The notes under the pieces were generated by a model, which worked only from the letters and a program-made list of their open reading frames with translations, made no database searches and was not told the DNA's origin. 64,000 nucleotides of DNA from positions 1,152,001-1,216,000 of the forward strand of contig CAVRVY010000003.1 of the NCBI GenBank assembly GCA_963724765.1, given 5' to 3'. Origin of the DNA: an uncultured delta proteobacterium. GTDB taxonomy: Bacteria > Desulfobacterota > Binatia > Binatales > Binataceae. Shown piece by piece: positions 6,791 through 58,878 of the stretch (positions are counted from its first letter, which is position 1; the number at the start of each line of letters is the position of its first letter). A program made the position numbers and the translations under genes.

Positions 6791-7552
6791 CTAGTAACGT
6801 ACCTCTACCAGGTACAGTCCGGCGGCCGGCGCGGGAGCCGGCGCGAGCGCGCGGTCGCGGCTGGCGAGCAGAGCGGCGATGGTATCGGCGGGCGGCCTGC
6901 CTGCGGATTTGCCGCGACCCACCTCGACCATCGCGGCCACCATCGTACGCACCATGTGGCGCAAAAACGCGCTCGCCTCGACCCGGTAAATGAAATGGCG
7001 CTCGTCTCCATCAGGCTCGTTTTCGCGCCGCCAGCAGCTTTGCTCGACGCGCCGCACGGTGGTCTTTTCGGCCGATCCCAGCGAGCGGAAAGCGGCGAAG
7101 TCGTGCTCGCCGACGAACGTCACCGCCGCCGCGTTGATCGCGGCGAGATCCAGCGGCTCGCGCACCAGCCACGCCGAGTTGCGCTCGAACGCCGAGCGCA
7201 GCAGCCGGTTGAGCACGCGGTATTCGTAGATTCGAAGCCGCGCGTCGCGGCGCGGATCGAAGTTGTCGCCGGCCTCCGACGCCTCGAGCACGACGATGTC
7301 GTCCGGCAGTATCGCGTTGAGCGCGCGCGCGAGTTCGGCGGGATCGAATGGCCGTGGCAGCCGCGCCGCAGCGACCTGTCCGCGCGCATGCACGCCGGCG
7401 TCGGTACGTCCCGCGCCGCGCACGCGTATCGGCGCGCCGAAGATTCGCGCCAGCGCCTCTTCCAGCCGCGCCTGGATCGAATCCTGGCCGCTTTGCATCT
7501 GCCAGCCCGAGTAGTTGGTGCCGTCGTACTCGAGCTTGAGCCGGACCTGCAT
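6791..7552 (-). CDS. truA: tRNA pseudouridine(38-40) synthase
   Basis: EYDGTNYSGWQ, GAGRTDAGVHARGQ, GEHDFAAF, FLRHMVR. Confidence 0.97.
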   Translation of the reverse strand: MQVRLKLEYDGTNYSGWQMQSGQDSIQARLEEALARIFGAPIRVRGAGRTDAGVHARGQVAAARLPRPFDPAELARALNAILPDDIVVLEASEAGDNFDPRRDARLRIYEYRVLNRLLRSAFERNSAWLVREPLDLAAINAAAVTFVGEHDFAAFRSLGSAEKTTVRRVEQSCWRRENEPDGDERHFIYRVEASAFLRHMVRTMVAAMVEVGRGKSAGRPPADTIAALLASRDRALAPAPAPAAGLYLVEVRY

Positions 7553-46093: not shown

Positions 46094-46532
46094 CGAGCGA
46101 ACCGCCCGCCGCCGGCTCCGCGCCCGCCTGCGGCATCTCGGTCACCATACCGACGGTTTCGATTCCCGCCGCTTTGATTGCGGCCATCGTCTTGATCACC
46201 ACGCCGTAGGGCACTTCCTCGTCGGCGCGCACGAAGACCTCGCGGTCGGGCCGCGCGACGGCGATTGCCTGGAGCTTTTCAGTCAACTGGTCGAGGCCGA
46301 GCTTGGTGTCATTGAGGTAAACTTCCTGGTTGCGGGTGATCGAGACCACGAACTGCTCTTCCTTGCCGGGCAGGGCCGAGGCCTTGACCCGCGGCACGCT
46401 GACCTCAACGCCCTGCTGAATCATCGGCGCGGTGACCATGAAGATGACCAGCAGCACCAGCATCACGTCGACCAGCGGCGTGACGTTGATTTGCGAGGCG
46501 AACTGCCCGCGCTGTCCCGGTTCGAAAGCCAT
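46074..46532 (-). CDS. tolR: TolR
   Basis: [32 protein letters not shown]. Confidence 0.95.
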
Positions 46533-46559
46533 CCGCTGTGCGCTTTGGGGCCGGCGTCC

Positions 46560-47273
46560 TTACGACAGGAAATGACGCTCGGCGATATTGAGAAATTCGG
46601 AGGTGAAATTTTCCATTTCGATCGCGAGCTCGCGCACCCGGGCGGTGAAGTAGTTGTAAAGCATCTGCGCCGGAATCGCGGCGACCAGGCCTATGGCGGT
46701 GGTGATGAGCGCCTCGGCAATGCCGGGGGCGACCGCCTGGATGTTCGAGGAATGAGCCGCCGAGAGTCCGATGAAGGCCGTCATGATTCCCCATACCGTG
46801 CCGAAAAGCCCGATGAACGGGCAGGTCGAGCCGGTGGTGGCGAGGAACGTGATGCCCTTCTCCAGTTTGGTGGTTTCGACGTTGGCCTGCCGGCGCATCG
46901 CGCGTGTCACGTTCTCGACCCCGCCCAAGTCGGTCGAAAAACCGCTCTCGGCGCCCACCGCCTGACGCTTGGCGCGCGTGAGCTGGAGCAATTCCTGGTA
47001 GCCGGCGCGGAAAACCTGGGCGACGGGGCTGCGGATCAGGCTGACGCTGCCGCTATGAATCGCGGCGAGGTTTTTGGACTCCCAGAACAGCGCGATGAAG
47101 CGGTCGGACTCGCGCCGGGCATGTGAAATCTGGTTGAGCTTGTAGATGATGATGCCCCAGCTCACGACCGAGAAGAGGACCAACGTCCACAGCACCACCT
47201 GCACCACCGGGCCTGTTCCCAGCAGCAGGTCAGCCACCCCCATCGTGCCGGGGCCGCCTAACTCATGGGGCAT
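46560..47273 (-). CDS. tolQ: TolQ
   Basis: FLATTGSTCPFIGLFGTVWGIM, VAPGIAEALITTAIGL. Confidence 0.95.
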   Translation of the reverse strand: MPHELGGPGTMGVADLLLGTGPVVQVVLWTLVLFSVVSWGIIIYKLNQISHARRESDRFIALFWESKNLAAIHSGSVSLIRSPVAQVFRAGYQELLQLTRAKRQAVGAESGFSTDLGGVENVTRAMRRQANVETTKLEKGITFLATTGSTCPFIGLFGTVWGIMTAFIGLSAAHSSNIQAVAPGIAEALITTAIGLVAAIPAQMLYNYFTARVRELAIEMENFTSEFLNIAERHFLS

Positions 47274-47635
47274 ACCGCATCAGCTCCACCCGCTTATTAG
47301 AACGTAACCAGACGGATTTCGTTGCAATCAATTTACGTGGTGGCTCGGGCGGGAGCAAATCGCTTTCGCTCGCGCGATGCTTTGGCCGGGCCCTTTGAGC
47401 CACGTGAAGTCGTGCGCGCAGATGCGCGGGCGATTCGGAGTGCGTGAAGGCATTATGCCGCCGCCCCATGCGTCGTTTCATGCCACTGTGCATGGATCGC
47501 GAATCGTTGACACGCTACCCGCTGGTGGAAATTGTGATAGCCTTATTTCGAAATTAAACTCGCCTGCTGGGGTGCCAGCGGTTTCATCAAGAGGGCTCAT
47601 CTCGGGGGAGACTTAATCCTAGGGAGGATTGCGCT

Positions 47636-48640
47636 GTGGCGATCAGGATCGGGATCAACGGGTTCGGTCGAATCGGGCGGATGGCTTTTCGCGCGATGCT
47701 GGGCAAGAAAGAGGTCGAAGTCGTCGCGGTCAACGACATCACCGACGCCAAGACGCTTGCCCATCTGCTCAAGCATGACTCGGTGCACGGCTCGCTCAAG
47801 CATCAGGTCAAGGCCGAGGGCAATCAGATCATGCTCGACGGCCACGCGTTGCGCGTGGTCGCGGAGCGCGATCCGGCCAAGCTGCCGTGGAAAGAACTCA
47901 AGGTCGACGTCGTAATCGAATCCACCGGACTGTTCACCGCGCGCGACAAGGCAGCGCTGCATCTGAGCGCCGGCGCTCGCAAGGTCGTGATCAGCGCGCC
48001 GGCCGACGGGGTCGACGTGACCCTGTGCATGGGCGTCAACCAGGAAGCCTACGACCCGGGCAAGCATCACGTCATTTCCAACGCCTCGTGCACGACCAAC
48101 TGCCTCGCGCCAGTGGCCAAGGTGCTGCACGAGAACTTCGGTATCGTGCACGGCTTGATGACCACGATCCACTCGTACACCTCCGACCAGATGCTTCAGG
48201 ACGGGCCGCATAAGGATTTGCGCCGGGCCCGGGCGGCGGCGCTCTCGATGGTGCCGACGTCGACTGGCGCAGCCAAGGCGATCGGACTGGTGCTGCCGAT
48301 GCTCAACGGCAAGCTCGACGGCATCGCCATTCGCGTGCCGACGCCCAACGTCTCGGTGGTCGACCTCACGGCCACGGTCGAGCGCGACGCGGACGAGAAC
48401 TCCGTCAATGCCGCGATGAAGAAGGCGGCTGAGGGCGAATTGCGCGGCATCCTGGCCTACAGCGAGGAGCCGCTGGTCTCGGTCGATTTCAACGGCAATC
48501 CCCATTCGTCGATCTTCGACGCGCCGCTCACCAAGGTGCTGGGCAAGCGCCTGGTAAAGATTTTTTCGTGGTACGACAACGAATGGGGTTACTCGAACCG
48601 GCTGGCCGACGTGACCGCCTTCGTCGCAAGCAAGATCTGA
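47636..48640 (+). CDS. gap: Glyceraldehyde-3-phosphate dehydrogenase
   Basis: INGFGRIGR, SNASCTTNCL, WYDNEWGY. Confidence 0.98.
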   Translation: MAIRIGINGFGRIGRMAFRAMLGKKEVEVVAVNDITDAKTLAHLLKHDSVHGSLKHQVKAEGNQIMLDGHALRVVAERDPAKLPWKELKVDVVIESTGLFTARDKAALHLSAGARKVVISAPADGVDVTLCMGVNQEAYDPGKHHVISNASCTTNCLAPVAKVLHENFGIVHGLMTTIHSYTSDQMLQDGPHKDLRRARAAALSMVPTSTGAAKAIGLVLPMLNGKLDGIAIRVPTPNVSVVDLTATVERDADENSVNAAMKKAAEGELRGILAYSEEPLVSVDFNGNPHSSIFDAPLTKVLGKRLVKIFSWYDNEWGYSNRLADVTAFVASKI

Positions 48641-48657
48641 ACGGACGCAGCGCCGCG

Positions 48658-49836
48658 ATGTCCGTGCTCGAGGTCACGCAGCTTGAACTTGACGGTCGCA
48701 AGGCGCTGGTGCGATGCGACTTTAACGTGCCGCTGCACGAGGGCCGCATCGCCGACCCCGCGCGCATCGACGCGAGCCTCGACACCATCCGCTACATCCT
48801 CGAGCACGGCGGCGCGGTGGTGCTCTGCTCGCACCTCGGACGTCCCAAGGAGCGCACGCCCGAGCTCAGCCTGAAGCCGGTCGCGGAGCACCTGAGCGCG
48901 GCGCTCGGCCGCAAGGTCGCGCTCGCGCCCGACAGCATCGGCGAAGTCACGCTGGGACTGGTCGCGGCGCTTAAGCCGGGCGGTGCGCTGCTGCTCGAGA
49001 ACCTGCGCTTCCATCCTGAGGAAGAGGCCAACGATCGCGATTTTTCCCACGAGCTGGCGCGCGGCAAAGACCTCTACGTCAATGACGCCTTCGGCTCGGC
49101 GCATCGCGCCCACGCCTCGACCGTCGGGGTGACGCGCTTTCTTACCGAACGCGCCGCGGGCTTTCTGATGATGCGCGAACTCAAGGCGCTGAGCGCGCTG
49201 ACCCACGACCCGGCGCGGCCGTACATCGCGATTCTGGGCGGCGCCAAGGTCTCCGACAAAATCCGAGTCATCCGCAATCTGATGACCAAGGTCGACGCGA
49301 TTTTGATCGGCGGTGCGATGGCTTACACGTTCCTGCGCGCGCGCGGGATCGAAGTCGGCCGCTCGCGGGTCGAGGACGACAAGCTTCAGCTCGCGGGCGA
49401 ACTAATGGCCGAAGCCGCACGCCGCGGCGTGGCCCTGATGCTGCCGGTCGACCACGTGGTCGCGGCATCGCCCGAGGCCGGCACGGCCGAGACGGTGGAG
49501 ACGATCCCGTATGACCGTATGGGCCTCGATATCGGGCCGCGCACGGCCGAACAGTACATCGCGAAATTTCAGGGCGCGAAGACCGTGGTATGGAACGGGC
49601 CGCTGGGCTATTTTGAGCTGGAGGCATTTGCCCGGGGGACGCTCAAGGTCGGCGAGGCGCTGGCCAACCTGGCGGGCGTCTTCAGCGTGATCGGCGGCGG
49701 AGATACCGCCGCGGCGCTCGCCAACCAGCCGTGGTCCGCCCGCTTCAGCCACATCTCGACCGGCGGCGGCGCGACGCTGGAGTACCTCGAGGGCATCGAG
49801 TTGCCGGGCGTCAAGGCGCTCGAAAGCCGGGGCTAA
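48658..49836 (+). CDS. pgk: Phosphoglycerate kinase
   Basis: [38 protein letters not shown]. Confidence 0.98.
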
Positions 49837-49902
49837 GCCAAACGGCTGCGCAGCGTTGAAGTCGTAATCGGGGAAATCATTTTAACTGGCGGAGAGGGCG
49901 CG

Positions 49903-50676
<774 letters not shown>

Positions 50677-50723
50677 GACTTACGAGGCTGTAATACCCCG
50701 GTTATAAGCAGGTTATAAGGTTG

Positions 50724-51194
50724 ATGGTTACGATCGTTGTCGCGATTCATGTCGTGATCTGCCTCGCGCTGGTCATTGTGATCCTGCTCCAGCAGGGCAA
50801 GGGCGCGGAGATCGGCGCGGTGTTCGGCGGCTCGAGCCAGACCGTGTTCGGCGCGACTGGTGCCGGCAACGTGTTGACCAAGACCACGTGGGCGATGGCC
50901 GCGATATTTTTCGCGACTTCGATTTTTCTCGCCTATGCCTCGACGCGGCGTTTCACGGGCAGTATCTTCGGGTCTGGCGGCGGGGTGAGCCACAGGGTGG
51001 TCGTTCCGGCTAAGCCGGGCGTGCCGTCGGCGCCTGCAGCGCCGGTCGGACCGGCGGGAAGCGCTCCCGCAGGACAGGCCCACGAGGGACAGGCTCACGA
51101 GGCTCCGGGAGCCCCAGTACCCATGTCCGCACCGGCGGCCCCGGCCGCACCTGCGAACCAGTCCAGGCCAATTGCGCCGAAGCCCAGGCCATAG
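50724..51194 (+). CDS. secG: Preprotein translocase SecG with Pro/Ala-rich tail
   Basis: ILLQQGKGAEIGAVFGGSSQTVFGA. Confidence 0.93.
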   Translation: MVTIVVAIHVVICLALVIVILLQQGKGAEIGAVFGGSSQTVFGATGAGNVLTKTTWAMAAIFFATSIFLAYASTRRFTGSIFGSGGGVSHRVVVPAKPGVPSAPAAPVGPAGSAPAGQAHEGQAHEAPGAPVPMSAPAAPAAPANQSRPIAPKPRP

Positions 51195-51336
51195 GCGATA
51201 TGAAGATGCGGCGGACTAATTCGTGATCTTTTGTGACTTACAGAGCCGCGCGTGATCGCGGCCATGAATAGTGAGCCGCGCGTTGAGCGCGACCAAAAGG
51301 GTGACCGAAGCCGCGCTCAGATCGCGGCCAATGAGT

Positions 51337-51422
51337 GCGCGGGTGGTGGAATGGCAGACACGCGAGTTTGAGGGGCTCGTGGTAGAAATACCGTGCGGGT
51401 TCAAGTCCCGCTCCGCGCACCA
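51337..51422 (+). tRNA. tRNA-Leu(GAG)
   Basis: GCGCGGGTGGTGGAATGGCAGACACG CGAGT-TTGAGGG-GCTCG, long variable arm, GGTTCAAGTCC, ...GCGCACCA. Confidence 0.96.
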
Positions 51423-51427
51423 CTAAA

Positions 51428-52174
51428 TCAGCCGATCAGCGACGCCGCCGGGTCTGGCTCACAGGCGTTGCTCGGCATCTGGTCCCATGTGCGCCCTCCG
51501 AGAAGACGACCTCCGGATTTTGGCGTGCGTCCTCCCCACTGCTTAAAGAAAAATGGCACCCCGGCGGCCACACATTGGTTTCTTATGCGTGATACCCATT
51601 GCGGCTCCATGGGGCGAGCGTGCGGTCCGCTCTCTCCGCCAACGATAACCCAGTGAATCCCTTGTAGAGCCAACTTCGGAATTGGTCCGAGCAGCGGCTC
51701 TATAGATAGAAATCTGACAGCTGCCGGCACCGTTCGAAGGTACTTTATTCTATCTACATACTCTGCATCTTCGACGGAGACGCCCTGCCATACGTTACGT
51801 GGCCATTCCAGCCGAGGAGCCAGTTCGGCGAGACGCGTTGCCCGCTTGGTAAGCACCTGGAAGGTATGCCAGTGAGCCCGCGCCATCACCGAGAACACTT
51901 GACGGATAAAGTCTTCCGGTATCGTCTCGTGAAACAGGTCGCTCATACTGTTCACGAAAATGCGCCGGGGCTGTTTCCACTTAAGTGGCAGAATGAGTTG
52001 ATCGGGATGCAGGACTAGTTCAAACCCGTTGCGGTATCGGGGGTTGCCCATCGCCTTGAGGCGAGCGGCCAATCTTTCTGCGTAGCAATGTTTGCATCCG
52101 GGGCTAAGTTTGGTGCAGCCCGTTACCGGATTCCAAGTGGCATCGGTCCACTCTATAGCCGATTTATCCCCCAT
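51428..52174 (-). CDS. Phage Gp37/Gp68-like (DUF5131) Cys-motif protein
   Basis: [50 protein letters not shown]; lower GC than its flanks. Confidence 0.9.
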
Positions 52175-52315
52175 GGCGCTTCCCCTAATCCCTATCCTTC
52201 GAATGGGCGAGTATTCAAGCGCTACACTTTCAACGGCGGCTATGGCGCAACATCGTGGTGTCGGCATTTCCTCCGTTTGGCGTCGTGCGGGCCGCGCGCC
52301 GGGGCGGCGGCGCGG

Positions 52316-53313
52316 TTAGCGGACGCCGAGCGAGAGCTGCGTGCCCGGCGCAATCGCGGGCGCGCCGGCGCGGGCCGGCGCGCGCCGATCGCGATGATCA
52401 ACCATGAAGCCGTACTTCGCGCGCATCCGATCGAAAATTGCGCCGAGCCGCTCGTCATAGCCGCGGGGCGCATAGACCGCGCGAGCATAAAACTCGTCGA
52501 TACGTCCCGCCACCTCGGGGAAGTGCTCCTTGATGAACGGGATGAAGCGGCGGGCCGCCGAGGGCTTGAGGAAAAGCGAGCGCCACCATACCGCGCGGGC
52601 ACCGGCGCGCCGCGCCGCGCGCACTACGCTCTCGATCGCCGCCGGCGCGTCGGTCAGCCCGGGAATCACCGGCATCATCAGCAGGTTACAGCGGATACCC
52701 GCGCGGCTTAGCTCGGCGAGCGCGCGCAGGCGCAATTCCGGGCGCGGCGCCCGCGGCTCGAGCGTGCGCTGGAGGGGCGGTTGAGCGTCATCAGCGAGAA
52801 GTTGACGCTTATCTTCGAGCGCGAGTGGATCGCGCTTAGCAGGTCGAGGTCGCGCACGACCAGCGCCGACTTGGTGGTGATCGAAAGGTCGAGCCCGCCC
52901 AGTTGCGCGAACACCTCGAGCATCGAGCGCGTAAGCCCGTACTTGCGCTCGGCCGGCTGGTAGGGGTCGGTTGCCGTGCCGATAGCGATCGGGTCCGAGC
53001 CGAGCGGCGTGCGCGACAGCGTATGCGAGAGTACCTGCGCGGCCATCCTTTTCACGAAGATGCGCCGTTCGAAATCCATCGGATCGCGCAATTCCAGGAA
53101 CTCATGCGTATAACGGGCGTAGCAATAGACGCATCCGAACTCGCATCCGCGATACGGGTTGATCGTCCATCGAAACGGCATCCGCGGGTTCTCGCAGCGG
53201 TTGAGTATGGTGCGGGCGGGCATCTCGATGAACTCGACGTCGCGCAGCGGCCCGAGCGGAACGGCGGTATCGTTAATGGATTCGTCGAACAGAGCGATGG
53301 ATGCGAGCTTCAT
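52316..53313 (-). pseudogene. SplB-like radical SAM protein, split by a 1-nt frameshift near 52775
   Basis: NPYRGCEFGCVYCYAR, GTATDPYQPAE, ITTKS in one frame; LQRTLEPRAPRPELRL...MPVIPGLTD continues in another frame. Confidence 0.85.
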
Positions 53314-53341
53314 CGCATCAGTTTCGTCTTTGTTCCGCTAT

Positions 53342-53349
53342 TCGTCAAG
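53342..53349 (+). repeat. Left copy of 8-bp target-site duplication TCGTCAAG
   Basis: Identical to 56166-56173. Confidence 0.92.
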
Positions 53350-53412
53350 GGCAATTATGTTGCAGTTGACACGGAAGGACGATAAAATGGCGAATGACGT
53401 GACAGGTCGGCT

Positions 53413-53715
53413 TTAGGAATTTGCTCTAATCAGATGATCTCGAAATGGCTTCAAGAACCAGGCGGTCGTTGCGAATCCACCCGATCCAAAGAAATATGCA
53501 CCTAAAACTTTCCAAGACATAGCAGGCAGGCGCCCGTTTGCCTTAAAAACGACCATAACTGTTAATATGATTGCCCAAACTAGTAGAAGGGTCACAAATC
53601 CAGTTAGCACAAAATACATCACCGTCATAAAGGTAGCTGCGCGCTCAGCCCTTATGACGGTGATTTCCCCGATCCGCTCCTGTTGACCGGAAGTAAGCGG
53701 AAGTTTAACCGCCAC
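53413..53715 (-). CDS. IS cargo: 100-aa protein with 2 TM segments
   Basis: Hydrophobic segments FMTVMYFVLTGFVTLLLVWAIILTVMVVF and VLGAYFFGSGGFATTAWFL; GTG start abuts the upstream TAA. Confidence 0.7.
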   Translation of the reverse strand: MAVKLPLTSGQQERIGEITVIRAERAATFMTVMYFVLTGFVTLLLVWAIILTVMVVFKANGRLPAMSWKVLGAYFFGSGGFATTAWFLKPFRDHLIRANS

Positions 53716-54015
53716 TTAGGCGGCCTTTTTAAAATACTTCCGCGCTTCGTCTATTTTGTTTAAATCAAAAATCGGAGCCAGCGCATTAATGTTGTCATGC
53801 TCCGTTAACTCCTTCCACACCGGAGATTTCGCCCAAATTTTTTCTGGCACGGATGCAACTAGATTGCGGTCTAGTTGTTCATGAATAAGCCATTCGTACG
53901 TTCGTGTGGCGTCCTGGATCAACTCGCCCAAGCCTTTTACAACTCCGGTGATCGCTGCCAACTGCTCCATTGCGGCCAGTGTTTCCGCCGATAGTTCAAG
54001 CGTTATCATTGCCAT
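53716..54015 (-). CDS. IS cargo: ribbon-helix-helix-like protein, 99 aa
   Basis: SD AAGGAG; ITLELSAETLAAMEQLAAITG...ELIQDATRTYEWL fits a beta-alpha-alpha pattern. Confidence 0.65.
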   Translation of the reverse strand: MAMITLELSAETLAAMEQLAAITGVVKGLGELIQDATRTYEWLIHEQLDRNLVASVPEKIWAKSPVWKELTEHDNINALAPIFDLNKIDEARKYFKKAA

Positions 54016-54034
54016 TTTTGGGAATCTCCTTACG

Positions 54035-54166
54035 CTACCAGGCATGCTTTGTGCCACTCATTGGATCGATCTTCGTATCGAATGGCGGCGGTTTCGGATT
54101 GGGCCATTGCTCTGGCCATTTTTCCGGACGTGGCCTTCTTCTGGGGTCTATCACCACGACGGGCAT
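54035..54166 (-). CDS. IS cargo: putative 43-aa Pro/Arg/Trp-rich peptide
   Basis: MPVVVIDPRRRPRPEKWPEQWPNPKPPPFDTKIDPMSGTKHAW*; fills the gap between a promoter and the RHH-like gene's SD. Confidence 0.45.
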   Translation of the reverse strand: MPVVVIDPRRRPRPEKWPEQWPNPKPPPFDTKIDPMSGTKHAW

Positions 54167-54182
54167 GCAATCTCACACGTAA

Positions 54183-54211
54183 AATCTAAGCTTGTGCAGG
54201 GATGGGTTCAA
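54183..54211 (-). promoter_or_regulatory. Sigma70-like promoter for the minus-strand cargo operon
   Basis: TTGAAC-N17-TAGATT. Confidence 0.5.
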
Positions 54212-54311
54212 CTGAAGGGCCGCGTATTATAGCGGGACCAAAGACGCGTAACAAGTGCGAACAAAATGCCGTCAATTGTTGATTGGCGTGACTGGACTGG
54301 GACCATGTTAC

Positions 54312-54341
54312 TTGACGGGTATTCCCCGTTAACGTTATTGT
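54312..54341 (+). promoter_or_regulatory. Sigma70-like promoter for the winged-helix cargo gene (probably leaderless)
   Basis: TTGACG-N18-TATTGT, 9 nt before ATG 54351, no SD. Confidence 0.5.
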
Positions 54342-54350
54342 GGAAGTCCC

Positions 54351-54821
54351 ATGGAAAAAGACATTCGCCCGTTGCTGGAATCTCTTCGACGAGAACTAGC
54401 GGCACATCAGCGAGCCCTTGAAGAAGGGCAGGCTGTTGTCGAGCGGGAACAAAAATATTGCGAGCATTTGAGGGGTCTCATCGAGTTGGAGACCATACAG
54501 ACCGCGCCGCCAAGAACCCACCATCAAAACAACGGCGCATCTAACAATCCTAATCCTGCAGCTTCGCCAGCATCAGTCCTTGTCGTTAAGAGACAGCCCG
54601 GATATGCAGCAGTAAGCGTTACACAAGCCGCTCGCCAAATCCTTGGCACCACGGACAAGCTGCATGCCGACGAATTAGTTAGGCGAATCTTCGTGATTGA
54701 TTCACCTAAGAAATTTCAGCGTGCAAAGAATGGATTGGTTAGCGAACTGGTGAGGGGAACAAAGGCAGGACACTTTGTGAGAACAGGTCCGAATGAATTT
54801 GCCCTGCCGAATTCCCATTAA
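54351..54821 (+). CDS. IS cargo: N-terminal coiled coil plus C-terminal winged-helix-like domain
   Basis: Heptad N-terminus, Asn/Pro linker, then SVTQAARQIL..KLHADELVRRIF...LVSEL...HFVRTGPNEFAL. Confidence 0.7.
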   Translation: MEKDIRPLLESLRRELAAHQRALEEGQAVVEREQKYCEHLRGLIELETIQTAPPRTHHQNNGASNNPNPAASPASVLVVKRQPGYAAVSVTQAARQILGTTDKLHADELVRRIFVIDSPKKFQRAKNGLVSELVRGTKAGHFVRTGPNEFALPNSH

Positions 54822-54828
54822 AAGAATT

Positions 54829-55018
54829 GCGCCGGTCGTGTTGGCAGCACGAACCGGCGCGGTCGGGAAATAACGCCTCTCGGTCCTCCGACCGAGCACC
54901 CGCTTAAGAACGGGGCCGAGAGGCTGGCACGCACCGCCTAGAGGTGTGGAAGGAGAACAGCGCGTATGCGTCACGATACGTCATAGAGATCGGCCCCCGC
55001 AAGGGGGGCCTACTTTTT
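54829..55018 (+). ncRNA. Candidate structured RNA inside the IS (strand uncertain)
   Basis: Consecutive stems GCGCCGGT/ACCGGCGC, GCCTCTCGG/CCGAGAGGC, CCCG/CGGG, CGCACC/GGTGTG, CGTAT/ATACG, then terminator GGCCCCC-GCAAG-GGGGGCC-TACTTTTT. Confidence 0.45.
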
Positions 55019-55144
55019 CCGCAATTTCTTAGCTTCTTGCTTAGTTTTTCTCTTCGGCTTCGATTTGGTCGGCGCTGTTATCAACGCCTTCATAAAGTGG
55101 TCGAAATCGAGACCGCCGCTCGTCATTTCGAGTGACTTGGGCAT
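55010..55144 (-). CDS. IS cargo: 44-aa Lys-rich small protein downstream of the transposase
   Basis: MPKSLEMTSGGLDFDHFMKALITAPTKSKPKRKTKQEAKKLRKK*. Confidence 0.55.
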   Translation of the reverse strand: MPKSLEMTSGGLDFDHFMKALITAPTKSKPKRKTKQEAKKLRKK

Positions 55145-55187
55145 GCGCCCATATTACTCGCCTCGCTTCGGTTTCTTCAACAGTCTG

Positions 55188-56114
55188 CTACACGCGTGAA
55201 ATAAGCGCCTGAAAAATGTCAGGGTCTTCACGATGGTTGTGCCGGAACGCGAATTCGTTCACGTACAGCGGCAGATATTCTTTGCCGACCTGATGGAACG
55301 TTCCGACGATCCCGCGCTTCAGTAGCGACCAAAACCCTTCAATCGTGTTCGTGTGAACGTTTCCGCGCACGTATTCATGCTTCGCGTGTGTCACGGTTTC
55401 GTGTGGCAATCCCGCCTTTGTCAGATGCCGGTAGGCCGGATTCTCATCCGTTGCGATGAGCGACACCTTGTCCGACACGGCCTCGCGCACAAAGTTGTCC
55501 AGCGTCCGAAAGCCCGCTTCCTCGATCACTTGGCAAACGGCATTGCCTTTGCGCGAGATCGCACCGATTACCATCGTCTTTTTGCTTGTGTACGGGCCTT
55601 GGCCATGGCTCCGTTTGTTCCAGTGTCGATTCTTGTCCTTGCCGCCAACCCAGGTCTCGTCAGCTTCAACCTCGCCCATCAGCTTACTAAACTCCGTGTT
55701 CTTCATTGCCGCGCGGATGCGATGGCACATGAACCAAGCAGTCCGATAGTCGCCGCTGCCGATCTGCCGATGAATCTGTAACGCGCTGATACCTTTCTTG
55801 CTCTGGCACATCAAGTAGCCGACTTGAAACCAAACGCGCAGCGGATATTTTGTGTTCTCGAAAACCGTGCCGGTTGTGACGGAGAATCGATAGCCGTCCT
55901 TCGCGCATTTCCGACATTGCCAGTGCCACGGACGTTTCTTGACCTCTGCGACCTTGGGATTGCCGCACCTTGGGCACTGGACGCCCGCAGGCCAGCGCGA
56001 ATCGCGGACAAAGGCTTTGCAGTCATCTTCGGTCGCAAATCGCGCCTGAAGCTGCGCAAAGGTCATGCTCGGTTGCGTGGTGAGCGGCTTGCCTGCTTTG
56101 ACTTTCGCGTCCAT
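55188..56114 (-). CDS. IS1595-family DDE transposase
   Basis: Zinc ribbon CPRCG...WQCRKC, GISALQI HTH, VEADETWVGG, ATDENPAY, HTNTIEGFWSLLKR, EFAFRHN. Confidence 0.95.
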   Translation of the reverse strand: MDAKVKAGKPLTTQPSMTFAQLQARFATEDDCKAFVRDSRWPAGVQCPRCGNPKVAEVKKRPWHWQCRKCAKDGYRFSVTTGTVFENTKYPLRVWFQVGYLMCQSKKGISALQIHRQIGSGDYRTAWFMCHRIRAAMKNTEFSKLMGEVEADETWVGGKDKNRHWNKRSHGQGPYTSKKTMVIGAISRKGNAVCQVIEEAGFRTLDNFVREAVSDKVSLIATDENPAYRHLTKAGLPHETVTHAKHEYVRGNVHTNTIEGFWSLLKRGIVGTFHQVGKEYLPLYVNEFAFRHNHREDPDIFQALISRV

Positions 56115-56120
56115 GCAGAC

Positions 56121-56149
56121 AAATTACCATTTGCTCGACTCCGTGTCAA
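56121..56149 (-). promoter_or_regulatory. Transposase promoter, -35 inside the TIR, leaderless
   Basis: TTGACA-N17-TAATTT with a TG extension, 6 nt before ATG 56114. Confidence 0.7.
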
Positions 56150-56165
56150 CTCAGACATAATTGCC

Positions 56166-56173
56166 TCGTCAAG
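56166..56173 (+). repeat. Right copy of 8-bp target-site duplication TCGTCAAG
   Basis: Identical to 53342-53349. Confidence 0.92.
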
Positions 56174-56215
56174 TGTGTTTGCACTGAGGCCGAAAGGACC
56201 GTCACACAAATCAGC

Positions 56216-56563
56216 ATGCGATCCAATTTACCTGCGAATAGCAGCATCTTTCCTACGGTGAAGGCATATCGAAATCCATTACCCGCAGGCGATCGCGGGA
56301 TCGAATTTACCACTGCTGTAATGCCCACTCCTGGTAAGGGAAGTCCAAGGGAAGCCCGATGGTACCCCCAAACGCCCGGTGTTAGGGTGATTGTACGGAG
56401 TGGCATTGATTTTGTGATTTCAGCAACGGTGACGAAGAACACGCAGGTGCGATGTCACCCGATGCTCTTTCGTGGCAAAGAGCGGACAATCCAGAATTGT
56501 AATTATCGTTTACGCTCGTTCAAAGGCGCCGGCTATTTCTACGGCAAGGTGACCAGGTCGTAG
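56216..56563 (+). other. Lower-GC orphan ORF or gene remnant
   Basis: VKAYRNPLPAGDRGIEFTT...EARWYP..PGV...TKNTQ looks protein-like, but there is no clear start and it overlaps the next gene's end. Confidence 0.35.
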
Positions 56564-57561
56564 GCCGGGGGCAATCGCTCGCCGACCACTGTGGCAGTCT
56601 CGGCCATCTCGCGCGTGCGAATCACCGAGCCGTCGGTCGTGACGGCGAAGAAATCGCCTTCGCTCTGGGGGTCGGCCCTAAAGCGCATTACCATCCCGCG
56701 CTCGGGCAGCGTGTCGTCGCCGAGCGCCTCGAAGCTCTGGCCCGCGTCGAGGCTGCGGAACATCACCGCGTCGGCGCCCGCCAGCCCCGCCGACCAGAAC
56801 GGTGGCGGACCGGCTGCCGCGGCGGTAAAGACCCGACTCGGCTCTCCCGCCGCGACAAACAGAGGCACCGTGTAGCTGCGGCACAGCCCGCGCTTGATCT
56901 TGCTCCACGAGCTGCCGCGGTTATCGGAGACGTAAAAGCCGGCGCCGGTGGTCGCGTAGAGGCGTTTGTGATTTTGCGGATCGACCGCGATGCAGTGGAC
57001 GTCTTCGTAGAGCCCGCTGTTGAGCAACTCGAAGCTCTCGCCGTGGTCGCGCGAGCAGGCGACGCCGCCCTCCTCGACGCCCACGTAAAAGGTCGCGGAG
57101 TCATGCGGGTCGAATACGATCGAGCGGACGTGCGGGATGTGCGGCGGCGGCGGAAAACTCCAGCGGTCGCGTCCCGGCAGTTTGAGGAACCCCACACACT
57201 CGCGAAACGTACGGCCGTGATCGAGGCTGTGCAACAGTCGCGCGTGCGAGGTGCCGATAAAGACCTCGCCGGGCGCCTGCGGCGGCGCCGCGATTGCCCA
57301 TACGTCCTCGTTGCGCGCGATGCCGGGCGTGATATCGGCCCAGGTGCGGCCGCTGTCGGTCGAGCGCGCCAGCGTCACTCGGCCCCTCGCGCTGCCCATG
57401 TGGGCGTGGTCGACCGAGCCGGCGTAAATCGTTCCCGGGTCGCGGCAGTCCTGCGCCATGCACCACACCGACGGCGGATCTGCGAGCACCATCAGCGGCT
57501 TGCCCTTGCGCTCGGCGTCGAGGACAACGATCCCCTTCGACGTACCTACGCAGAGTTTCAT
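56539..57561 (-). CDS. BNR/Asp-box repeat beta-propeller protein
   Basis: Repeated SxDxGxTW/F Asp-boxes (RSTDSGRTW, SLDHGRTF, SRDHGESF, SDNRGSSW, SLDAGQSF). Confidence 0.88.
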   Translation of the reverse strand: MKLCVGTSKGIVVLDAERKGKPLMVLADPPSVWCMAQDCRDPGTIYAGSVDHAHMGSARGRVTLARSTDSGRTWADITPGIARNEDVWAIAAPPQAPGEVFIGTSHARLLHSLDHGRTFRECVGFLKLPGRDRWSFPPPPHIPHVRSIVFDPHDSATFYVGVEEGGVACSRDHGESFELLNSGLYEDVHCIAVDPQNHKRLYATTGAGFYVSDNRGSSWSKIKRGLCRSYTVPLFVAAGEPSRVFTAAAAGPPPFWSAGLAGADAVMFRSLDAGQSFEALGDDTLPERGMVMRFRADPQSEGDFFAVTTDGSVIRTREMAETATVVGERLPPAYDLVTLP

Positions 57562-57750
57562 CCTCGCCCCCTCCCCCCTTGTGAGCCTCGATCTTCCGCA
57601 AGAGCGCGAGCGCTCCCTCCGCACTTCGGCGGAGCCCCTCCATTGAATCAACCGCGCGCGGTTGCGCTCTCCAATCCTATGGCGCGGCCGTTACGAAAGC
57701 ATCAGCGGTTAACCTGGCTTTTGCCGCCGTTTGTCCATCTTCTGCTTTAG

Positions 57751-58671
57751 TTACGTGAGAAGTATCGAAGTGTGCAGGCGGCCGCCCGCAGAGAGTTCGT
57801 GCGGCGCGACCTTTTTGGGGCTCGAATCGAAACGCACCCGCCGCACCAGCATCGTGGCGCCCGTGAGCGCCACCCGCATCCCGGCCGTGTCAATCGACAC
57901 GACGGTGCCAGCCGGGCTCCGGCTTTGCCGGTTCTCCAGGATTGGTTCGTATAGCCGCAGCCGCTCACCATTGGCCTGCGCATATGCGCCCGGCTGCGGA
58001 TCGCATCCGCGCACCAGGTTGAAGACTTCGCGCGCGCTGCGCGCGAAATCGACTTTGGCGTGCTCGTCGCGGCATGGCGGCTCGTAGGTCGCGAGGCCCT
58101 CGTCCTGCGCGATCGCTGGCGCGGCTCCCGCCTTGATGATTTCGATCGCCTCGACCATGGTCTCGATGCCCAGCGGGAAGAGCCGGTTGAAGTAGAGCGA
58201 GCCGACAGTGTCCTCGTCGCGGATGGGCTCGCTGCGTTGCAGCAGGATCGGTCCGGTGTCGATGCCCTTGTCGGGCCAGAACCAGGTCACGCCGGCGCTC
58301 GCGTCGCCCATGATTAGGGTCCAGTTGATTGCGCTGGCCCCGCGATGGCGCGGCAGGAGCGAGGGATGAAAGCAAATCGATTTGTGCCGCGGCGCATAGA
58401 GGATGCGCTCGGGCACGATCAGCGTCACGAATGCCATCACCAGCAACTCCGCTTCCAGCGCGCGGAACTGATCGAAGGCGGCGTCACTCTTGAAGGTCGC
58501 CGGCTGGCTGAGCGGCACGCCCAGCCCGAGTGCCTTGGCCTTTAGCGGGTCGGGGCGGCCGCCGGGCGGGTCGGGCGGCGCGAACACGCGGACGATCTCC
58601 TCCCCGCGCGAGTGGAGTACCTCCAGGGCGCGCTCGGCAAACGCCGCCTGTCCGATGAGAGCGATGCGCAC
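57751..58671 (-). CDS. Formyltransferase-family protein (ALDH1L1 N-terminal hydrolase-like)
   Basis: IALIGQ, FHPSLLPRHRGASAINW, DKGIDTGPI, RGCDPQPGA. Confidence 0.88.
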   Translation of the reverse strand: MRIALIGQAAFAERALEVLHSRGEEIVRVFAPPDPPGGRPDPLKAKALGLGVPLSQPATFKSDAAFDQFRALEAELLVMAFVTLIVPERILYAPRHKSICFHPSLLPRHRGASAINWTLIMGDASAGVTWFWPDKGIDTGPILLQRSEPIRDEDTVGSLYFNRLFPLGIETMVEAIEIIKAGAAPAIAQDEGLATYEPPCRDEHAKVDFARSAREVFNLVRGCDPQPGAYAQANGERLRLYEPILENRQSRSPAGTVVSIDTAGMRVALTGATMLVRRVRFDSSPKKVAPHELSAGGRLHTSILLT

Positions 58672-58710
58672 CGTCTCTAAACCTCCGCCGCGATGTTCAT
58701 TAGGGACTCA

Positions 58711-58755
58711 CCCTACCAAACCACACGCTACCAAATCGAACGTTACCAAATCGAT
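58711..58755. repeat. Three 15-bp direct repeats with invariant TACCAAA
   Basis: CCCTACCAAACCACA CGCTACCAAATCGAA CGTTACCAAATCGAT. Confidence 0.75.
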
Positions 58756-58878
58756 CATGGGCTGGCACGCGCCGGGACCATCGCGCGCCGCGCTTTCGTC
58801 CACAGCGTCTGTGGGTTGGCGTGCACGGACGCTCCCGTTGTATAGATGGGGCCAAACCACACGGCGGGAGGAACCGCG

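Follow-up and report, generated by a model that had tools for sequence, protein, structure and literature searches.

A transporter insertion sequence of the IS1595 family with unclassified cargo in an uncultured member of the Binataceae

Elements of the IS1595 family that carry passenger genes were reportedly described by Siguier, Gagnevin and Chandler in 2009 under the name 'transporter IS', IS standing for insertion sequence. An N-terminal zinc ribbon is found in all IS1595 groups except IS1016, and the ISNwi1 group, in which the size range of the passenger-carrying members takes in an element of 2.8 kb, is marked by termini that follow ggnnatTAT and by a DDEK signature combined with ER4. 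One passage in the literature lists an 8-bp duplication, a zinc finger and a DDE domain as features of the family (PMC8101967), and another gives the transporter IS (tIS) as an IS with passenger genes (PMC11891212), both with reference to Siguier et al. 2009. Here, we have analysed a stretch of 64,000 nucleotides, hereafter the window, from contig CAVRVY010000003.1 of an uncultured delta proteobacterium of the family Binataceae (assembly GCA_963724765.1), and positions 53350 to 56165 of it hold a complete tIS of the IS1595 family, which is an element of a known kind with a cargo that is unclassified.

The element shares with the described tIS of this family a DDE_Tnp_IS1595 domain with a zinc ribbon, an 8-bp target-site duplication (TSD), short ends starting with GG, a single transposase gene and passengers inside. 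Its ends begin GGCAATTAT, and its transposase has the spacings E259-x6-K266 and E287-x3-R291. Unlike the known tIS, the clade to which it belongs adds a recurrent gene for a coiled-coil HARE-HTH protein, a small basic open reading frame (ORF) and a TTGAC (-35) target; literature searches, which did not extend to ISfinder, found no description of accessory genes, cargo spectrum or a -35 target in IS1595 elements. Taken as a whole, the locus is probably a tIS with the two accessory genes orf44 and ORF156, a preference for -35 targets, a variable cargo pair and a block of terminators, and its clade-level patterns (accessory genes, cargo spectrum and target) are leads rather than results.

The element and its transposase

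The element has a length of 2,816 bp and is bounded by terminal inverted repeats (TIRs) of 26 nt, of which 23 positions are identical in both arms, the three mismatches lying next to each other at positions 12-14. The pattern of these arms occurs in the window at these two places only, and 100 shuffles yielded no match. An exact 8-bp TSD, TCGTCAAG, immediately abuts both arms; because this 8-mer is present five times in the window, the evidence for a duplication lies in its adjacency to both ends (chance about 4^-8) and not in the rarity of the word. TIRs and an 8-bp duplication of the target are both features of the IS1595 family. An earlier note on this DNA, which was made from the letters alone, had claimed a complete IS1595 element with exact boundaries, and this is borne out by the arms, the exact duplication and the profile matches of the transposase.

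This transposase is intact and matches PF12762 (DDE_Tnp_IS1595, E 5.7e-40) and PF12760 (Zn_ribbon_IS1595, E 2.3e-10), thus joining the catalytic domain of the family to the N-terminal zinc ribbon, and it exceeds the cut-off of the NCBIfam model NF033547 by far (E 1.8e-61, 207.7 bits, cut-off 75). Measured over 74 relatives with uninterrupted transposase matches, all residues that are at least 93% conserved are retained, namely C47, C50, C67, C70, D152, D223, E259, K266, E287 and R291; the four cysteines of the zinc ribbon are invariant across these relatives, and the YxxE-x3-R-x3-R tail is kept too. The closest transposase that was found is 74% identical, while copies on plasmids reach no more than 40%. 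Within the right TIR, TTGACA is followed by a 17-nt spacer, TAATTT, 6 nt and then the ATG of the transposase, an arrangement that forms a putative promoter of this gene.

Over the 1,812 bp from the left end to the stop codon of the transposase, the GC content amounts to 0.45-0.57, compared with 0.60-0.71 in the flanks, and the earlier claim of passenger DNA with a lower GC content thus holds. Four supported ORFs lie in this part (ORF100, ORF99, ORF156 and orf44), giving the element the genes beyond the transposase that characterise a tIS; they are presumably dispensable for transposition. Up to five small ORFs had been proposed, and four of them stand, ORF99 with a length of 99 aa instead of 113. 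A start of ORF99 at the GTG at 54057 (ORF113) was ruled out, as its homologues have 99 aa and AAGGAG, a strong Shine-Dalgarno sequence, precedes the ATG at 54015 by 8 nt.

Relatives, accessory genes and cargo

Relatives were collected by a genome scan with the transposase, which gave 80 loci (designated L001 and so on; the genome of the window is not among them). Most belong to Binataceae or to metagenome-assembled genomes (MAGs) labelled 'uncultured delta proteobacterium', the others to Alphaproteobacteria, Chloroflexota and further phyla. Ends were called where an inverted repeat spanned the transposase with a TIR of at least 14/18 and a flanking TSD of at least 7/8. This applied to 49 of the 80 loci, and L030, with a duplication of 6/8, was added by alignment to the window; at the remaining 30, ends could not be called, and some of these loci are truncated by the contig. 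Including that of the window, 51 elements of 1,815-4,243 bp were obtained, without a single bare insertion sequence among them. The bounded members of the clade all carry 0.8-3.2 kb of passenger DNA, and this DNA is almost never repeated: 159 cargo ORFs from a greedy call fell into 140 blastp clusters, only 13 of which have more than one member.

Among 97 cargo ORFs of at least 95 aa (window excluded), a Pfam family was found at E<=1e-3 in 25 and none in the remaining 72. The named cargo consists mostly of toxin-antitoxin, restriction-modification or candidate defence genes, in particular PemK (L041), Gp49 with HTH_3 (L074), SocA_Panacea (L067), Fic with Bro-N (L008), N6_N4_Mtase fused to Mrr_cat (L039, L042 and L061), N6_Mtase in a protein of 821 aa (L054) and DUF3800 in proteins of 263-305 aa (L019, L030, L065 and L066), all assigned via Pfam. 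PADLOC models (E<=1e-5) matched nine of the 97 ORFs, in seven of 50 elements. The DUF3800 cargo recurs in four otherwise different elements, including L030, which occupies the same site as the element of the window. Insertion sequences with rve/IS3-type and DDE_3-type transposases are nested in the cargo of L019 (7246-8148) and L031 (7500-8594). L070 has a non-coding gap (about 6868-7377) that separates its transposase from the HARE-HTH gene; part of this gap resembles, by eye and from the fold output, a tRNA gene whose variable arm is long. Capture of cargo by a surrogate far end was ruled out, the far ends of the relatives matching their near ends at up to 18/18.

Two of the four ORFs recur in relatives. 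The small basic orf44 has an N-terminus of the form MPKSLEMSSGGLDFDxFMKAL followed by a lysine-rich tail and is present in six loci (window, L030, L001, L025, L008 and L002) at +36 to +83 nt from the stop codon of the transposase and on the same strand; by eye, L003 has it as well. Its amino acids are kept among these loci, with the DNA having diverged. ORF156-like ORFs occupy the same place in L008, L040, L070 and L001. A word-index search for homologues of ORF156 returned only ORF156 itself, and its relatives surfaced only with a profile of seven sequences built from cargo ORFs of the related loci. This profile retrieved 1,286 representatives at E<=1e-3 (63 at <=1e-10), mostly of 140-180 aa and matched from end to end. 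When a hidden Markov model of the family was run on all 4,598 ORFs of at least 60 aa in 81 loci (the 80 relatives and the window), nine loci held a member at E<1e-4, all nine on the strand opposite to the transposase and eight of them beginning 323-553 nt after it. For a family this rare among proteins, such a distribution points to a strong association with IS1595 elements.

The C-terminal part of ORF156 aligns with relatives that are positive for HARE-HTH (PF05066), a domain present in 15 of 31 scanned family members; ORF156 itself gave no direct match to this model in the Pfam scan, and hhalign against nine PF05066-positive relatives yielded a probability of 98.9% (E 1.8e-17). AlphaFold2 (AF2), supplied with 81 sequences, modelled the protein at a mean confidence (pLDDT) of 89, with a helix at residues 2-51, a linker of low confidence and a winged helix at 90-151, and the model resembles Zalpha/ZBP1 and AspA-type domains at a target TM-score of 0.7-0.8, with E values of only 0.03-0.3. 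It differs from known HARE-HTH proteins in being free-standing, in its length of 156 aa with an N-terminal helix of 50 residues, and in its fixed place in IS1595 elements. Given a promoter-like site that ends 10 nt ahead of the ATG, its mRNA would be leaderless or nearly so. Since they keep the same position and strand in relatives, orf44 is better read as an accessory gene of the element, and ORF156 as one in part of the clade, with a possible role in regulation or in the choice of targets, rather than as cargo. The self-contained module proposed in the earlier note is thereby reduced: passenger DNA is indeed present, but these two genes look like accessory or backbone parts.

The insertion site and target preference

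The flanks of the element (46508-53376 and 56539-58867) are 88-91% identical to those of L030, and weaker alignments link them to L003, L008 and L019. At these four of the 80 loci, protein searches found the same radical-SAM gene of the PA0069/Rv2578c family on one side and a BNR-repeat gene on the other. In each of the five genomes, a member of the clade is inserted at one and the same point, which lies about 28 nt ahead of the radical-SAM start (53313 in the window). Read on the strand of this gene, the site consists of TTGAC(G/C), a 17-nt spacer with AGCGAA-N5-AGCGAA, GAAA(C/A)T and then ATG, the distance from GAAA(C/A)T to ATG being 6 nt in the window, L030 and L003 and 14 nt in L008 and L019. 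On the minus strand, the left copy of the TSD reads CTTGACGA and includes the -35 hexamer (TTGACG) of the radical-SAM promoter, so that the gene-proximal copy of the duplication keeps this promoter whole. The repeat AGCGAA-N5-AGCGAA(A) lies between the TTGAC -35 and the GAAA(C/A)T -10 in the window (53314-53349), L003, L008, L019 and L030 and is also found in L001 (9478-9510), ahead of an ImuA/ImuB-like pair; it is a candidate for an SOS-type operator of this lineage. PA0069 is named as one of 15 SOS genes of P. aeruginosa in a passage citing Cirz et al. 2006.

The occupants of this site differ from each other. The transposase is distal to the radical-SAM gene in the window and L019 and proximal in L030, L003 and L008, and the cargo is different in all five elements. 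The window and L030 are 85% identical over 1,083 nt, a tract that starts at the end, covers the transposase and reaches into orf44 as far as its first half; similarity returns only in the last ~60 nt. The earlier note had named, as speaking against its reading, relatives in which the cargo stays here although the transposase is missing; the opposite was found, four genomes keeping a transposase of the clade at this site next to different cargo. Cargo is presumably swapped between the conserved end that holds the transposase and the final ~60 bp at the far end.

Beyond this locus, L001 sits on a TTGACA before a gene pair that is RecA/ImuA-like and Y-polymerase-like (weak matches below the cut-off) and is preceded by the same AGCGAA repeat, and L002 has inserted at the TTGACA box of a promoter of the form TTGACA/TATAAT. 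Of the 51 elements, seven contain TTGAC within the TSD itself (background 0.006, p 2e-8), and in 14 it is no more than 5 nt distant (background 0.021, p 2e-12); as five of the seven cases come from one shared locus, leaving three distinct sites in all, the independent evidence is thinner than these p-values suggest. In six further elements, perfect stems of at least 5 bp flank the duplication, which thereby falls into a hairpin loop (background 0.007), and distant members with the TSD in such a loop are L045, L046, L063, L064, L058, L068 and L074. This suggests a second target class of terminator or REP-like (repetitive extragenic palindromic) hairpins.

IS30 inserts into targets that resemble its own ends, and insertion sequences that target REP sequences or hairpins also exist. 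Similarly, the targets of this clade are not random, TTGAC resembling the TTGACA box in its own ends and distant members lying in hairpin loops, and the transposase would prefer such TTGAC-like targets. In contrast to IS30 and the REP-targeting elements, the target here would be the -35 hexamer of a promoter that is regenerated by the duplication.

Some observations concern the surroundings of the site. The radical-SAM gene (52316-53313) is split in the window into two frames of 201 aa and 139 aa, while the ORF of L030 is intact with 347 aa; relative to L030, the window is short of one base in a G/C run near 52776, either by a real frameshift or by an assembly error. The gene weakly matches radical SAM mobile pair protein B, and the gene downstream of it (51428-52267, minus strand) has a sub-threshold match to TIGR04471, 'radical SAM mobile pair protein A' (E 5e-20); GC falls to 0.55 over 51500-52250. 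Beyond the right end follows a 366-bp stretch of low GC (0.51) without a family match (window 56231-56506; ORF 56216-56563, plus strand). It is 78-83% identical to the interior of the cargo of L033 (7096-7149 and 7446-7668), L033 and L030 being in the same MAG, and could be what is left of an element that occupied this place before. The features of the element are compiled in Table 1.

Table 1. Features of the element and of its insertion site (positions in the window)
Feature	Position	Strand	Basis
Operator-like direct repeat, AGCGAA-N5-AGCGAAA type, in promoter spacer/-10 region	53322..53338	-	conserved at five syntenic loci
Target-site duplication, left copy TCGTCAAG	53342..53349		adjoins left TIR
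Left terminal inverted repeat GGCAATTATGTTGCAGTTGACACGGA	53350..53375	+	arm comparison
ORF100, small membrane protein, GTG start, hydrophobic segments ~27-57 and ~69-87 (by eye)	53413..53715	-	homologues
ORF99, small soluble helical protein, 99 aa	53716..54015	-	homologues, AF2 at low confidence
Promoter-like TTGTTA-17-TATAAT facing the ORF99-ORF100 operon, divergent from the ORF156 site	54226..54254	-	consensus match 10/12
Promoter-like TTGACG-18-TATTGT, ending 10 nt ahead of the ORF156 ATG	54312..54341	+	consensus match 9/12
ORF156: N-terminal 50-residue helix (coiled coil), disordered linker, C-terminal HARE-HTH-type winged helix	54351..54821	+	profile, hhalign, AF2
Structured non-coding block, 188 nt, between convergent ORF156 and orf44	54822..55009	+	folding against shuffles
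Hairpins within the block	54829-54860, 54875-54924	+	fold
Terminator hairpin, followed by T run	54992-55010	+	fold and terminator scan
orf44, small basic ORF, starting 44 nt past the transposase stop	55010..55144	-	
IS1595-family DDE transposase, N-terminal zinc ribbon, 308 aa, intact	55188..56114	-	Pfam, NCBIfam, residue conservation
Right terminal inverted repeat	56140..56165	-	arm comparison
Target-site duplication, right copy TCGTCAAG	56166..56173		adjoins right TIR

The cargo pair, the structured block and the history of the site

The stop codon of ORF99 stands immediately before the GTG start of ORF100, by which the pair is translationally coupled. Among 5.8 billion clusters, two homologues were found for ORF99 (87% and 73% identity) and two for ORF100 (81% and 73%), one homologous pair lying on a single contig of 6,410 bp, and the substitutions in both proteins are mostly conservative. 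A comparison of the cargo DNA and of ORF99 with plasmids and phages gave zero matches, and the defence models of PADLOC-DB 2.0 matched none of the five proteins of the element at E<=1. In the ESM Atlas, ORF100 reached a best score of 0.85 without a family, and the nearest clusters of ORF99 include an RHH_1 (ribbon-helix-helix) cluster at rank 10 with a score of 0.90. By eye, the N-terminus of ORF99 shows a strand-helix-helix pattern reminiscent of RHH, which we take as a lead. The prediction of a complex of two ORF99 copies scored 0.35 (mark 0.42; controls 0.00-0.01) and gives no verdict either way.

Small size, translational coupling, a promoter-like site and a first protein that is soluble with a possible DNA-binding N-terminus are traits that the pair shares with type II toxin-antitoxin and abortive-infection pairs on mobile elements, and among the cargo of related elements are genes of the PemK/MazF, HigB/HigA, Panacea and Fic types. 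It departs from the type II pairs in that ORF100 is a membrane protein outside the known toxin families and ORF99 has no recognised antitoxin domain. Based on the cargo of the relatives, the tight coupling and the dedicated promoter, ORF99/ORF100 might be a pair of the addiction or abortive-infection type, a tentative analogy that we prefer and in which ORF99 would act as a small repressor or antidote that binds DNA and ORF100 as the coupled two-pass membrane effector, the benefit being stabilisation of the element or protection of the host. The guess of the earlier note that the cargo is toxin-antitoxin-like or anti-phage was a reasonable one, given that relatives carry toxin-antitoxin-like, restriction-modification and candidate defence genes, and the undescribed system that it suspected may be present.

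The pair could instead be hitch-hiking DNA, a fragment of another mobile element or of a host operon (a regulator with a small membrane protein) that is neutral or decaying and has no role in addiction or defence, and we consider this possible rather than probable. It would agree with the want of a family match in four libraries, with the two homologues each among billions of clusters, one of them apparently frameshifted, and with the 72 of 97 cargo ORFs of relatives that lack a Pfam family, most cargo of the clade thus being unclassified; the identity of 73-87% with mostly conservative changes, the coupling with its strong Shine-Dalgarno sequence and promoter-like site, and the finding of zero cargo-free bounded relatives, which suggests that cargo matters for persistence, speak for a function. 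Regarding the structured block, which the earlier note had counted as an RNA part of the module, the fold is far better than that of shuffled sequences (z -4.8, 0/200 as good), its 188 nt exceed the need of two terminators, and its first hairpin, GCGCCGG..CCGGCGC, is kept with another loop after the ORF156 homologue of L008 (four of eight loci covered). A functional RNA working with the cargo, for example as an RNA antitoxin or as a regulator of transposition, is nevertheless very unlikely in our view. The sole match of an Rfam covariance search over 53000-56500 (E<=1) was a chance one within ORF156 (22.6 bits, with the gathering score at 80), whereby an RNA of a type held in Rfam was ruled out for the block; ARAGORN found no tRNA or tmRNA in it, the promoter scan no promoter-like site within it, and the 80 related loci hold no sequence counterpart of it beyond the transposase end. 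Bordered exactly by convergent stop codons and closed by a canonical terminator, the block reads best as the terminators and 3' hairpins of convergent transcription units and not as a separate RNA partner, and the RNA part of the earlier claim was not upheld.

As for the shared site, one ancestral insertion at the radical-SAM promoter might have been inherited by the lineages of the window, L030, L003, L008 and L019, with later inversion via the inverted ends and replacement of the cargo by recombination with other copies. This history would explain why the clade occupies the same intergenic site in all five genomes; the transposase of the window is sister to that of L030, its closest host (97 in the Shimodaira-Hasegawa-like approximate likelihood ratio test, SH-aLRT), and the identities among the transposases (55-72%) lie within the range of the neighbouring BNR protein (50-90%). 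The duplications, however, differ at the shared site. L003 has CGGTCAAG on both sides, that of L008 is shifted by one base, and L030 has GCGTCAAG and ACATCAAG; to come from a single event, both copies would have had to change alike, and these differences appear hard to derive from one ancestral insertion. Copies from other loci (L001, L025, L028 and L033) moreover nest among the same-site copies, the transposase tree joining the window and L030 (97), then L001 and L003 (99), then L008 and L025, and placing L019 with L028 and L033 (97). Finally, the TSD of the window is perfect and its transposase intact, while the transposase of L030 has seven in-frame stops and its duplication is reduced to 6/8. 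We hold a single old insertion to be unlikely.

Several points weigh against the reading of the locus that we prefer, a tIS with accessory genes, a -35 target, variable cargo and a terminator block, in addition to the concentration of the TTGAC cases at one locus. The unrooted order of the five same-site transposases is compatible with the relatedness of their hosts and hence with long residence. Judged by the TIR pattern, the window holds one copy of the element. The -10 of the putative transposase promoter matches at three of six positions only, and the promoter scan did not call this site. Neither ORF99 nor ORF100 has a match in Pfam, NCBIfam, PADLOC or PHROGs, these libraries placing them in no type II toxin-antitoxin family. 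The ORF100 homologue P0007 loses its similarity past residue ~55 in a frameshift-like manner, by which selection on ORF100 is not evident. An assignment of ORF99 to RHH (CopG/Arc/MetJ) found no profile or solved-structure match in Pfam or in sequence searches of the PDB, which gave chance matches only (LRR, that is leucine-rich repeat, proteins and CydC) both for the ORF99 profile and for the first 50 residues of the protein, and the AF2 model of ORF99, made from three sequences, is poor (pLDDT 45), with helices predicted at 10-23 and 29-47.

A bolder picture, to which we give little credence as a whole, would see in the clade a cassette shuttle that seeks promoters: with possible help from the coiled-coil HARE-HTH protein so often carried along, the transposase would insert on the -35 TTGAC of damage-inducible (SOS-type) promoters, the duplication would restore the promoter, and copies would swap hypervariable cassettes for addiction or defence that lie between conserved ends, ORF99/ORF100 being an undescribed membrane-acting abortive-infection or toxin-antitoxin pair. 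The carrier itself is ordinary. What is new is a clade in which every bounded copy holds a different small set of genes, about three quarters of them without a family, and it is therefore a compact source in which to look for new small modules of defence or addiction. That elements repeatedly occupy the -35 box of one promoter, in all five genomes, suggests a rule of target choice that lends itself to a direct test; if it were true, foreign cassettes would be placed beside damage-inducible promoters, with the promoters left intact.

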